The notes: generated by a model from the sequence alone, not told the origin. A stretch of DNA of 46,256 nt from a virus (IMGVR_UViG_2579779052_000002), one strand, 5' to 3'; positions 16,499-23,514 are shown, numbered from the stretch's first letter. Program-made: numbers and translations.

Positions 16499-19080
16499 TT
16501 TCCGCCTCCTGCATCCCGCCCACGTTTTGCCGCCAGGGTCCAGGCTGATGAATGAGCTTCTCCGGGTTTATCTTCGGTCATACTGTTGCAGTGCCACAGC
16601 GAGCCCCCCCACGTCACCGTATCGCCGGGGTGGTAGGTTTCACCGGCTCTGAACACACCGCGGTAGAGCATCACCGGCAGGGAAAATGTTTTTTCCGTAC
16701 GCTGGCCACTGCTCTGCCGGACCACCACAGAGAACAACCGCTCACCCGTCATGCTGACGTCAATATCCGCCACCCCGTCAACCAGGCATTCCCATCCCCG
16801 CATCCCGTGCGTTTTTTCATACGCCCGCCAGAGTCCGCCCTGGTGTGTGGCATACGTGCCCCGGGGAAAGGATTTTTGATCGTCAATGGCGGGGAGTATT
16901 TCCAGAGCCGTGGCATCACGCCCGTCCTGCGGAGCCGGCAGGGCACTCACCGCATCCAGAACCGCCTTCTGCAGAACATCCGGATCGTAGTCACGACCAT
17001 CACGCGGAACATGAATATGGCTTACCGCCTCCTTCACCATCTGTTCAAGCATCGGACGCACATCATCCGGGGTGAGACTTTTACCGTCTGCCGGCTGCGG
17101 AATATTTGCGACCGCATCATTCACCGCCTTCTGCAGAACATCGGGATCATAGTCACGACCGTCGCGCGGAACAGGGATATGGCTTACAGCCTCCTTCACC
17201 ATCTGTTCAAGCATCGGACGCACATCATCCGGGGTGAGACTTTTACCGTCCGCCGGCTGCGGAATATTTGCGACCGCATCATTCACCGCCTTCTGCAGTA
17301 CTTCCGGATCGTAGTCACGACCATCACGCGGAACAGGGATATGGCTTACAGCCTCCTTCACCATCTGTTCAAGCATCGGACGCACATCATCCGGGGTGAG
17401 ACTTTTACCGTCCGCCGGCTGCGGAATATTTGCGACCGCATCATTCACCGCCTGCTGCAGTACATCCGGATCATAATCACGACCATCACGCGGTACCGGA
17501 ATGGCCCCCACAGCGTCATCCACCATCGCCTGCAGAACCGGACGCACCTCATCCACCGTCACATGCTTCTGTAATACCGCCGACAGGGAAGTCAGTTTCT
17601 CTTCAAACGCTTGTGCCTGCGAGGCCATCTTCCCCTCAAATGTGCGCTGTAAATCCGCCAGCACTGTGGAGAATTCTTCTCCCAGTGCACGAATAATGGA
17701 CAGTTCCCGTTCCGTCATTTTCTCAGTATCCCCCCTGAACATCGCTTTCACCGCATCATGCTCTGTTTCACTGATTGCCTTATTACCGTCAGATGCGCCG
17801 TCAGGCAGCTGTGATGAAACTGTTTTCCCGGCAGACGCGAACGGATCCTCACGGGCATCACGACGGGACAGCGCCTCCAGACTGTAGTTCTGCTGCTGAA
17901 GATACAGTGCATCACCGCCGGCCAGGGGCGGCAGGTTCTCCCGTTTACGGGCCTCATTGGGCGTGAGAAGCGTATTTTTCACCGCATCCCCCAGCGTTTT
18001 CATGCGCCGCTCACTGTCCATTCTCAGCAGCGTGGTGACATCAAATTCTGTACTCTCGTTTTCCCCCGTTTCCAGCGCCTCATCCAGTAACAGTTCAATG
18101 GACTCAATCAGCGTCTGCAGGCACTGGGAATAATACTGCTGCTCCAGCGCCTCCACGTTGTCACTGGAAGGCGGTTGTCCCACGCCAATCTTGTAGGCCG
18201 GGACACGGAACACCGAACAGACAATTTCAGCGGTCATCTTCAGTTGTTCCACCGTCTGCGCATCCACAGGTGAAAACGTCGTGGGGTTGTATTTTGCCCC
18301 GTTGCTCAGAATGGCCGTTTTCCCCGCATTTTCGCCTGTATACCCGCTGTCCCAGTTGCTCTTCAGTTTTTTCGCATTTTCTTCCGTAATACTGCCGGGG
18401 ATCTCAATCACCCCGGACGGCCTGCCGCCATTTCTGAAAAAAGACGTCGAATTTTCCTGAATATGATGCCCCTGCGTGGCCGCCAGCCCGGCGGCATACA
18501 CCGGCGGCAATCCTATAAGCGGATGAAAAAAACAGTTAAACCGGTCGTGGATCACTTCCCGGGCAGGCACCGTCACCGCCTCCGTGATCCCGCAGTTCCG
18601 GTCCGGCGTGATGCGGTAGAACACCTCGCCGTCATCCGCCACCAGAGGTTCAACCCGGCTCCAGTCCAGAATACGCAGTTCTTTGATCTGCCCCCGGGCA
18701 TTACGGATTTTCAGCACCACCGTATTGCCATGACGCAGTTTGGCGTTCAGCCACAGTTCAAAAAACTGGATGCGGTTCTGCTGGGCGTTGGGACGACGAC
18801 AGAGGCGGGCAATATCCCCCCGGCGCGTTTCCCTGCGTATCCCATGCGCATCCGTCTGCATAAGACGCAGCCGCATTTTGGCGATATCCTGGGATATCAG
18901 CGAAATACATGCAAACACCGCATGAAAGGAGAGGACGGCTTCAGGATCGGCTTTCACGCCCTGCTGCCAGGCGCCGGAAAAGGGCTCAGCCACCGCCTGA
19001 AACAGGCTGGTCCAGCCCGCCTCTCTTACGTCACGTCCTGATTTCTGGTTTTTTCGGGTTCGCCGTAAAAGGTTCCACAT
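16495..19080 (-). CDS. portal protein (HK97 family) with ~440-aa C-terminal extension containing tandem 54-aa repeats
   Basis: N-terminal ~420 aa contains portal-like motifs (RPSGVIEIPG, GENAGKTAILSNGAKYNP, EIVCSVFRVPAYKIG); C-terminal region has 4 copies of IPVPRDGRDYDPDVLQKAVNDAVANIPQPADGKSLTPDDVRPMLEQMVKEAVSH. Confidence 0.8.
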   Translation of the reverse strand: MWNLLRRTRKNQKSGRDVREAGWTSLFQAVAEPFSGAWQQGVKADPEAVLSFHAVFACISLISQDIAKMRLRLMQTDAHGIRRETRRGDIARLCRRPNAQQNRIQFFELWLNAKLRHGNTVVLKIRNARGQIKELRILDWSRVEPLVADDGEVFYRITPDRNCGITEAVTVPAREVIHDRFNCFFHPLIGLPPVYAAGLAATQGHHIQENSTSFFRNGGRPSGVIEIPGSITEENAKKLKSNWDSGYTGENAGKTAILSNGAKYNPTTFSPVDAQTVEQLKMTAEIVCSVFRVPAYKIGVGQPPSSDNVEALEQQYYSQCLQTLIESIELLLDEALETGENESTEFDVTTLLRMDSERRMKTLGDAVKNTLLTPNEARKRENLPPLAGGDALYLQQQNYSLEALSRRDAREDPFASAGKTVSSQLPDGASDGNKAISETEHDAVKAMFRGDTEKMTERELSIIRALGEEFSTVLADLQRTFEGKMASQAQAFEEKLTSLSAVLQKHVTVDEVRPVLQAMVDDAVGAIPVPRDGRDYDPDVLQQAVNDAVANIPQPADGKSLTPDDVRPMLEQMVKEAVSHIPVPRDGRDYDPEVLQKAVNDAVANIPQPADGKSLTPDDVRPMLEQMVKEAVSHIPVPRDGRDYDPDVLQKAVNDAVANIPQPADGKSLTPDDVRPMLEQMVKEAVSHIHVPRDGRDYDPDVLQKAVLDAVSALPAPQDGRDATALEILPAIDDQKSFPRGTYATHQGGLWRAYEKTHGMRGWECLVDGVADIDVSMTGERLFSVVVRQSSGQRTEKTFSLPVMLYRGVFRAGETYHPGDTVTWGGSLWHCNSMTEDKPGEAHSSAWTLAAKRGRDAGGGK
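16939..17586. repeat. 162-bp tandem direct repeat, ~4 copies, in-frame within portal gene
   Basis: Anchor AATATTTGCGACCGCATCATTCACCGCC recurs at 17101, 17263 and 17425 (period 162); flanking copies are degenerate. Confidence 0.9.
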
Positions 19081-19247
19081 TCGCCATGCTCCGCATCACG
19101 TTTCTTTTTCTGACCTGCCGGACGTCGCACCGTGATGTACTCCGCCTTTCCCAGGCGAACCAGCACCTCCGCACACGGCTGTGCCACATCACGGATATCC
19201 CCGGCCCGGGCATCATGCGTGCCCTGCAGATATCGGATCTTTGCCAT
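19026..19247 (-). CDS. hypothetical small protein (73 aa) between capsid and portal genes
   Basis: ATG-initiated ORF, weak RBS, overlaps portal start by ~55 nt; may not be expressed. Confidence 0.3.
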   Translation of the reverse strand: MAKIRYLQGTHDARAGDIRDVAQPCAEVLVRLGKAEYITVRRPAGQKKKRDAEHGECGTFYGEPEKTRNQDVT

Positions 19248-22954: not shown

Positions 22955-23514
22955 CCGTTGCCCTCATTATCGTTATTCACCACCAGTCGGGGGGGCGGTG
23001 GCACCGCAAAACGGTTAGCCGCTTTTTTCGCGGCATCACCTTTTGCCGATTTTTTCCCGGTATCCCCTTTTTTATGGTGCGTGAACTGCGCCAGACGCCA
23101 GGCCGCATCCAGTGCCAGTTTCGGATCAATGCAGAGGTTTTCCACCAGGATCCGCCCCATGGCTTTCACCGGATCGGGAAGACCATCCTCCATATATTCA
23201 ATACCAGGAGACATCACCGCGGACGGTGGCATCTCCAGATTGTTTTCGTCCGGCTGTGGTATTGCAGCCGCCTCACGGCGACGGGGTTTATCCTCCTGCT
23301 CTGATTTTTTCTGCCGGTAAACAGGAACCTCATCCACCTCCACCGTCTCGCATTGTTTACGGGCTATAAACGCAAGCACCTCAGGATCTTTTGCCAGCTG
23401 CGAGCCTTTAACCCTGGCGGTCTTCGCCGAATAACCGGCGGCAATGGCTGACGCTGTTTTGTTTTTCCCGGACATGAGCGCCAGCGCAAATTTTCGTTTT
23501 TGCGTTGTCAGCAC
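22951..23514 (-). CDS. terminase small subunit (P27 family-like)
   Basis: GTG start with GGAGGAGG RBS; N-terminus LTTQKRKFALALMSGKNKTASAIAAGYSAKTA matches the small-terminase HTH signature. Confidence 0.8.
   Translation of the reverse strand: MLTTQKRKFALALMSGKNKTASAIAAGYSAKTARVKGSQLAKDPEVLAFIARKQCETVEVDEVPVYRQKKSEQEDKPRRREAAAIPQPDENNLEMPPSAVMSPGIEYMEDGLPDPVKAMGRILVENLCIDPKLALDAAWRLAQFTHHKKGDTGKKSAKGDAAKKAANRFAVPPPPRLVVNNDNEGNG

Follow-up and report, generated by a model that had tools for sequence, protein, structure and literature searches.

The head genes of the virus IMGVR_UViG_2579779052_000002 raise the question of how a prohead protease, a major capsid protein and a portal protein came to be arranged in gene units, and in an order, unlike those of phage HK97, and what products would be made from them. 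The window, i.e., the whole stretch of 46,256 nucleotides (nt) that was analysed, carries the head-gene block wholly on the minus strand, as seen in its map of open reading frames (ORFs). The explanation that best accounts for the evidence taken together, and which we hold with high confidence, is that this block is a known head module with a derived protease-capsid fusion gene, an ancestral gene order, and a portal gene fused to its downstream neighbour (gene X).

The protease-capsid fusion gene and its place in the head module

The fusion gene and its parts were assigned as follows.

19292–21229, minus strand: protease-scaffold (delta)-major capsid fusion gene, 645 amino acids (aa); matches to Pfam S78 and Phage_capsid, TIGR01554 and phrog_617
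20750–21229, minus strand: prohead serine protease domain, about residues 1–160; matches to Peptidase_S78 and TIGR01543
20651–20668, minus strand: candidate second start, made up of an internal AAGGA resembling a Shine–Dalgarno (SD) sequence (20664–20668) and the ATG of Met193 (20651–20653)
20360–20653, minus strand: scaffold segment resembling a delta domain, about residues 193–290; the TIGR01554 match starts at residue 204, and the C-terminal boundary is approximate
19295–20359, minus strand: capsid body of the predicted HK97 fold, about residues 291–645; match to Phage_capsid

The first-pass annotation had described a single 645 aa ORF joining an HK97-type protease to an HK97-type capsid protein, and profile searches bear this out, with all three families scoring above their cut-offs. 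Peptidase_S78 (Pfam) matches residues 48–152 (34.7 bits, cut-off 21), Phage_capsid (PF05065) matches residues 386–635 (53.1 bits, cut-off 24.2), and TIGR01554 (major_cap_HK97) matches residues 204–584 over model positions 3–355 (78.1 bits, cut-off 27.5), a match that spans both the delta segment and the capsid body. Residues 1–639 are covered by phrog_617 (E = 1e-261), and the scaffold segment can be aligned to the N-terminal portion of capsid proteins encoded by genes of their own. The motifs LWQH (His55) and GLS(V/I)GF (Ser110; GLSVGF here) are invariant across five homologues, including the stand-alone protease of a Variovorax prophage, and His55 and Ser110 may be the counterparts of His65 and Ser114 of HK97 gp4. 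The sole match to the capsid body in a sequence search of the PDB was a weak one, to the major capsid protein 9d9w (E = 0.0017). The start codon of the fusion gene is a GTG, 5 nt downstream of an AGGAGG sequence, and directly downstream of its stop codon is a GC-rich hairpin without a T-run (19258–19275, minus strand).

It might be asked whether the 645 aa ORF is itself an artefact, in which a sequencing or mutational frameshift has joined two genes. Distant relatives do have separate protease and capsid genes, and the window already holds one fusion of this kind, in the portal gene. However, the ORF is uninterrupted at 644 aa in four loci of enterobacterial relatives in IMG/VR (L075, L077, L079 and L081 in our numbering; 75–77% identity) and at 653 aa in a prophage of Pseudomonas syringae, so that it is intact across lineages. 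The junction has no homopolymer, the fusion is present in hundreds of phage and genome records, and phrog_617 models the full-length protein. An artefact is extremely improbable on these grounds. The first pass had named two results that would speak against its reading, a frameshift splitting protease from capsid, and portal and capsid identities the other way round; no such frameshift occurs in the 644–653 aa orthologues, and the domain searches show that the identities are not reversed.

Domain searches give the gene order as small terminase subunit (TerS), large terminase subunit (TerL), the protease-scaffold-capsid fusion, a small ORF and the portal, and the portal gene lies downstream of the capsid gene, as first proposed. 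Genes for adaptor, head-closure, gp10-like, tail-completion and tail-tube proteins follow the portal ORF (Pfam and NCBIfam domains). This order had been called atypical, which holds in comparison with HK97 but not within its own large family (present in about a fifth of complete E. coli genomes), where it is conserved. The loci of relatives were retrieved via gene X, the gene downstream of the portal. Enterobacterial relatives in IMG/VR (portal 67–69% and fusion protein 75–77% identical) have the same order, as do the P. syringae prophage, a Variovorax prophage and two contigs from metagenomes or metagenome-assembled genomes. Because the order TerL, protease, capsid, small ORF and portal is shared by enterobacteria, Pseudomonas, Variovorax and metagenomic contigs, we read it as the ancestral order of a broad family, with no rearrangement. 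In full, the ancestral order is TerS, TerL, protease/capsid, small gene, portal, accessory fibre gene and adaptor.

The 7 kb block is identical in nucleotide sequence (100%) to that of Escherichia phage vB_EcoS-783R2, and is 98% identical to those of phage 2851 and Stx2a_WGPS6, and 95–98% identical to those of YYZ-2008, JLK-2012 and dozens more phages converting to Shiga toxin (Stx) 1a, 2a or 2c production. Phages 2851, YYZ-2008, BP-4795, JLK-2012 and other Stx1a, Stx2a and Stx2c phages carry the same genes in the same order (95–100% identity), and their records differ from the window only in the length of a G run in the portal gene (five or six Gs, hereafter G5 and G6), in the number of repeats in gene X, and in occasional IS629 insertions. 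A 91 nt probe from the module hit 1,061 of the 5,426 complete E. coli genomes searched; the median copy number was two and the highest seven. Head morphogenesis in a widespread family of E. coli lambdoid prophages, of the Pankowvirus/Marienburgvirus type, is encoded by this module; many long-tailed Stx phages are members. Both the fusion gene and the gene order are already known and annotated in public records; GenBank entries of several relatives name the gene "major head protein/prohead protease" or "major capsid protein". A literature search on this E. coli module, on its proteomics or on the portal frameshift found nothing specific to them.

HK97 gp4 and gp5 belong to the same protease (Pfam S78) and capsid (TIGR01554) families as the window protein, HK97 likewise uses a delta-like N-terminal segment in place of a separate scaffold, and the window carries HK97-type portal, adaptor, head-closure and gp10-like proteins. 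In HK97, however, the genes are separate and run portal, protease, capsid, whereas in the window the protease and capsid are fused and lie upstream of the portal. The same fused architecture has been curated twice, as NCBIfam NF045541 (scaf_prot_MCP2, "prohead protease/major capsid protein fusion protein") and as PHROG 4523 ("major head and protease protein"). The window protein scores only 54 bits against NF045541 (cut-off 525), in a partial match over residues 48–287, and falls outside that family; judged by sequence, it is an independent or very distant case of the architecture.

Between the fusion gene and the portal lies one further gene of the block.

19026–19247, minus strand: small conserved gene, 73 aa, with core codons 1–55 at 19083–19247; match to phrog_829 (E = 3.7e-39)

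A possible 73 aa ORF overlapping the portal start had been noted at first pass. The ORF is present, shares 55 nt with the beginning of the portal ORF, and belongs to a conserved gene, although only its first 55 codons are conserved. Its product ends in a basic C-terminal tail. A word-based protein search found matches in E. coli only, and Pfam and NCBIfam searches with the 73 aa ORF gave no match; Pseudomonas, Variovorax and the metagenomic contigs each have a small ORF at this position, and the Pseudomonas copy gives a weak, sub-threshold match to DUF7210. In L075 and L079, the gene encodes 55 residues (MAKIRYL(R/Q)RTHDS...GKAEYF...) and its TGA stop overlaps the portal ATG (TGATG). Across the 55 codon core, comparison of E. 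coli with L075 and L079 gives saturated synonymous sites, a nonsynonymous divergence (dN) of about 0.28–0.30 and a dN/dS ratio (omega) of about 0.12, while L075 and L079 compared with each other give an omega of 0.24. These low values over 55 codons argue that the small ORF is a genuine protein-coding gene under purifying selection. The E. coli copy has lost its stop codon and reads on for 18 codons inside the portal gene, hence the overlap between the two.

Origin of the fusion and the putative internal start

Protease and capsid are encoded by separate, adjacent genes in Variovorax and in two metagenomic contigs (198 + 460, 201 + 525 and 195 + 514 aa); E. coli, its relatives and P. syringae have a single fused gene. 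This distribution is consistent with the fusion being the derived state, reached through loss of the stop codon between neighbouring protease and capsid genes. In a multiple alignment, the Variovorax capsid protein (MTIAEQIAAFE...) begins exactly at Met193 of the fusion protein (MNIGEQIKSFE...), a methionine kept in all four fused orthologues. Each of these also carries an SD-like motif 5–10 nt upstream of the Met193 codon (AAGGA in E. coli, L075 and L079; GAGGAGG in P. syringae), and the linker residues encoded at this motif differ among the four (HKEKTI, KKGINS, KKGNIS and PEEGN). Since Met193 and the motif have been kept despite the divergent linker, the ancestral capsid start is probably still in use, and the gene would then yield two products, the full polyprotein and a delta-capsid protein lacking the protease.

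In such a system, the GTG with its strong AGGAGG would direct synthesis of the full polyprotein, and initiation at Met193 would give a 453 aa delta-capsid protein without the protease. The two would co-assemble on the portal, the covalent link bringing the protease into the prohead with no need of a separate targeting signal, and the protease would then cut off itself and the delta domain to leave a mature capsid protein of about 350–360 aa.

Several points tell against this proposal. The spacing between the internal AAGGA and its ATG is long in E. coli, at 10 nt, and a preference for Lys, Glu and Gly residues would be another way to explain the purine-rich linker. The internal start, the cleavage site and the protease activity are all predictions from the gene sequence, and the proheadase model of HK97 (TIGR01543, an equivalog model) matches residues 48–154 with 46.5 bits, under its cut-off of 59; the N-terminus of the fusion is accordingly classed here as an S78 family member and not as an equivalog of HK97 gp4.

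The alternative is that the full-length polyprotein is the sole product, each capsid subunit bringing its own protease, with Met193 a mere leftover of the ancestral N-terminus. The strong and well-spaced AGGAGG at the GTG suits this, as does the internal spacing in E. coli, which is beyond the optimum. Against it stands the shared occurrence of the methionine and an SD-like motif (positions −5 to −14) in all four fused orthologues, over differing linker residues. Nested in-frame starts are common in protease/scaffold genes, such as C/Nu3 of phage lambda and UL26/UL26.5 of herpesviruses, and this too speaks for a second start. In both P2 gpO and lambda C/Nu3, the protease is covalently tied to an assembly component, as in the window protein, and lambda C/Nu3 has the internal in-frame start as well; unlike the window protein, both have the protease joined to the scaffold only and not to the capsid protein. 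The three-part polyprotein itself has a precedent, one whose published description mentions a single product only. ORF18 of the c2-like Lactococcus phage Nocturne116 is described as a single protease-scaffold-capsid polyprotein cut at the scaffold/capsid junction, and cryo-electron microscopy places the N-terminus of the mature capsid protein at that junction, consistent with self-processing (PMC13595954). The window protein has the same three-part architecture, but no close sequence relationship was detected between the two, host and phage lineage differ, and Nocturne116 has a separate vertex protein gene, one that was not seen in the window block. On balance, the polyprotein as sole product is a possibility of some substance, though a doubtful one, and use of both starts remains the reading we prefer.

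The portal gene, gene X and the G run

The features of the portal region are as follows.

17730–19080, minus strand: portal protein proper, about 450 codons, HK97 family; matches to Phage_portal, TIGR01537 and PDB portals
17730–17735, minus strand: homopolymer run of six Gs (G6), with a 1 nt gap in the alignment to JLK-2012 (G5)
16495–17718, minus strand: gene X, 407 codons from the ATG at 17716–17718; here the C-terminal half of the "portal" ORF
16961–17554, minus strand: tandem repeat array within X, 3.3 copies of a 162 nt unit, i.e., 54 aa double repeats (Tandem Repeats Finder)
16172–16498, minus strand: head-tail connector (adaptor, gp6-like), with a 4 nt overlap with the stop of X; matches to Phage_connect_1 and TIGR01560

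The portal ORF as it stands in the window (16495–19080, minus strand) encodes 861 aa, where an HK97-type portal has about half as many, and owing to the G6 fusion it is outside the range of about 400–470 aa expected of a single-domain portal that ends after the crown. Most of this ORF falls beyond the coordinates given at first pass, and the fusion had not been noted there. Its identity as a portal is clear from Phage_portal (PF04860; residues 54–382, 272.6 bits, cut-off 39.1) and TIGR01537 (portal_HK97; 349 bits, cut-off 112). Portals of 424–431 aa in the PDB align to residues 43–420 only, and that of HK97 (8cez) to residues 45–400.

The same region is annotated as two ORFs in JLK-2012 and BP-4795, which have G5, and as a single coding sequence of 859 aa in phage 2851, which has G6. 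In the G5 frame, the portal ends in ...KAMFRGILRK and its TGA stop overlaps the ATG of the next gene (ATGA). The portals of distant relatives (67–69% identical) end in ...KAMLRGLLAK or ...KAMIRGFLTK with the same ATGA overlap; these relatives have no G run, and they carry stop codons in the downstream frame just upstream of the X ATG. The C-terminal pattern KAM[FLI]RG[ILF]L.K, followed by the stop, is conserved only in the G5 frame, and portal lengths are 451–472 aa among the relatives and 450–472 aa when the G5 alleles are counted with them. The 861 aa "portal" is best described as a fusion, by a single added G, of a portal of about 450 aa with a separate, fibre-like gene. Because the split form is conserved in relatives that have no G run, the two-gene G5 state is taken to be ancestral and G6 a derived +1 insertion.

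A homopolymer error of the 454 type was considered as the origin of the split portal in JLK-2012 and was ruled out by the occurrence of G5 in 95 stretches of IMG/VR (G6 was found in 41) and at 708 places in complete genomes, by the record of BP-4795, which is of the Sanger era, and by the frame-equivalent form in all distant relatives. In complete E. coli genomes, the junction haplotype of the window occurs with G6 1,338 times (752 genomes) and with G5 708 times (367 genomes). These counts are from 34 nt queries, which are unable to seed across the G run; a 119 nt megablast query could not separate the two alleles, as one gap still leaves at least 99% identity.

If translated as it stands, the fused ORF would place X at the C-terminus of every portal subunit of this virus. 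Is such a portal workable, or is G6 an inactivating frameshift that leaves the prophage head-defective and the fused ORF a pseudogene of intact appearance? Inactivation would fit with two genes being the ancestral and phylogenetically widespread state, with G5 at the inferred root of the haplotype tree described below, and with the split form of BP-4795, a functional phage. Solved portals also lead one to expect the C-terminus of the portal within the head, an odd site for a carbohydrate-binding fibre. On the other side, G6 ranks first among the alleles of complete E. coli genomes, and phage 2851, presumably an inducible, lysogenizing phage, has it in its record as a single portal coding sequence. 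The frames of the fusion gene, the portal and X are all intact in 18 of 24 G6 modules and 20 of 41 G5 modules, and G6 modules are no more decayed than G5 modules. X, moreover, may still be made from its own ATG. Because G6 is common, is carried by phage 2851 and occurs in modules with frames kept open, a tolerated fusion is rated above a lethal one; the portal-X fusion is probably tolerated, and inactivation is unlikely, although to be reckoned with.

The interior position of the portal C-terminus counts against a tolerated fusion, and two other points belong with it. Assembly of a portal with a 407 aa C-terminal extension is a prediction, and the Prokaryotic Genome Annotation Pipeline (PGAP) calls the G5 form, and not the G6 form, defective ("frameshifted").

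A further possibility is that the G run acts as a programmed or contingency switch, by ribosomal, transcriptional or high-frequency DNA slippage, so that one prophage gives both a plain portal and a portal-fibre fusion, much as other phages extend capsid and tail proteins by frameshifting. Both alleles occur often, and a neighbour-joining tree of 88 flanking haplotypes, analysed by parsimony, places G5 at the root with at least eight switches of state; several G6 haplotypes differ from a G5 haplotype at only 0–2 positions in 750 nt. Were a ribosome to slip by −1 in the P site on G5, or by +1 on G6, the product would be exactly the protein of the other allele; in the G5 frame, a rare AUA codon lies directly downstream of the run. 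These observations are offset by the distant relatives, in which no fusion is possible since there is no G run and stop codons precede the ATG in the X frame, and by the finding of both states on only one of the 88 haplotypes of 1 kb. Six Gs are also short for efficient transcriptional slippage, and no stimulatory structure came to light, though no search was aimed at one. A conserved programmed frameshift at the portal-X junction was ruled out by the distant relatives, and programmed frameshifting there is unlikely because the site is not conserved; as a whole, a switch of any of these kinds is very improbable. It would, if real, work by phase variation of the DNA and/or low-level ribosomal slippage, giving particles with plain portals and free fibre, or with fibre-bearing portals. 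That the tract is such a functional switch and, at the same time, the fusion gene is a dual-start polyprotein that sets the protease dose is a speculative combination, which we consider improbable. The preferred reading of the junction is a recurrent, probably tolerated one-base fusion.

Gene X consists of an N-terminal long helix, about eight 27 aa repeats of a helix and an (I,L)PxPxDG motif, and a conserved C-terminal beta domain with a CBM5/12-like module. It is a separate gene, with the ATGA overlap, in BP-4795 (ORF59), JLK-2012, L075–L081, Pseudomonas and Variovorax. A homology search with the portal extension gave only near-identical fragments from E. coli, and the wider family was obtained from a representative library and a profile search, which yielded 5,607 representatives at E < 0.001. 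Among the best 149 other representatives listed of these 5,607, only one has a portal domain, and nearly all of those listed are stand-alone proteins of 250–550 aa. The length of X varies by allele, from 407 aa here to 461 aa in BP-4795, 348 aa in L075 and 304 aa in L079, and the repeat number differs.

In an AlphaFold2 model of X, the C-terminal domain has a predicted local distance difference test score (pLDDT) of about 90, and the repeat region is poorly defined as a monomer. Foldseek superimposes the C-terminal domain on chitin-binding domains at 1.4–1.6 Å over 44–45 residues (probability 1.0, E = 0.2), and further matches for X include phage tail-fibre proteins and viral collagen-like, CBM5/12 or lectin proteins. 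The Pfam CBM_5_12 model scores 19.1 bits with the window protein, below its cut-off of 26.2, and 29.8 bits with a homologue (P0175 in our numbering). In related contigs, the slot between portal and adaptor also holds genes containing PKD, collagen or LamG domains. Of the known systems, X comes close to fibre and decoration proteins of phages that bear collagen-like, PKD or CBM5/12 tips, by the matches of its C-terminal domain to chitin-binding modules and fibre proteins; unlike them, it has a 27 aa helix/PxPxDG repeat without a solved counterpart in the searches run, and a sequence search of the PDB with X gave no match. Together these features suggest that X is a fibrous, carbohydrate-binding accessory protein of the virion.

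Public databases give the wrong names, "phage portal protein" or "gp6-like head-tail connector", to stand-alone homologues of X from Klebsiella, Enterobacter, Pseudomonas and Variovorax (P0322, P0335, P0344, P0349, P0359, P0360, P0363 and P0380 in our numbering). The likeliest source of these names is the fused E. coli protein; neighbouring genes are the other candidate. The precomputed annotation of the E. coli portal-X proteins (P0001–P0120) also lists a Pfam accession, PF28083.

Neighbouring features and significance

The packaging genes at the upstream end of the block, and the intergenic region that follows them, carry these features.

22951–23514, minus strand: small terminase subunit TerS, 187 aa; Pfam Terminase_2 (E = 1.3e-8), annotated as terS in phage 2851
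21293–22954, minus strand: large terminase subunit TerL, 553 aa; TerL_ATPase and TerL_nuclease domains
21251–21268, minus strand: hairpin resembling a terminator, with a T-run after it, between the stop codon of TerL and the start codon of the fusion gene; consensus scan and sequence

The start of TerL and the stop of TerS overlap by 4 nt. The hairpin upstream of the fusion gene is presumably read through in an antiterminated late operon. Between the lysis and packaging genes lies a small ORF (24543–24884, minus strand) with a match to Pfam TonB_C (E = 1e-14), which is named "TonB family protein" in JLK-2012. Downstream of the head genes, the major tail protein (14247–15098, minus strand) has a C-terminal Ig-like domain (Ig_3, Ig_2 and I-set matches), a second putative surface-display domain of the virion module.

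The window also carries a block of P2-family genes at about 29900–43000, comprising holin, gpL, gpM, gpN capsid, gpO scaffold/protease (33766–34635), gpP, gpQ portal, a ParM-like gene and gpA. This block is in direct contact with the lambdoid late region, at a nanS-p-like esterase gene (27910–29790), and the P2 tail genes are missing on that side. The P2/lambdoid boundary looks like the junction of a truncated or composite prophage.

For a prophage family so heavily sequenced and already annotated, the main finding is of little significance in itself. What is added here is the ancestral gene order with its derived fusion, the retained putative internal start, the small gene validated as coding, and the recurrent one-base fusion of the portal. 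The portal finding matters mainly for annotation. Databases take the fused 861 aa protein as the reference "phage portal protein", and PGAP therefore flags the ancestral two-gene form as "frameshifted". The family, with both separate and fused protease and capsid genes and with the internal start kept, offers a natural comparison set for the targeting and dose of prohead proteases. If the fusion gene does encode a dual-start polyprotein, the ratio of its two products would set the dose of protease in each prohead.

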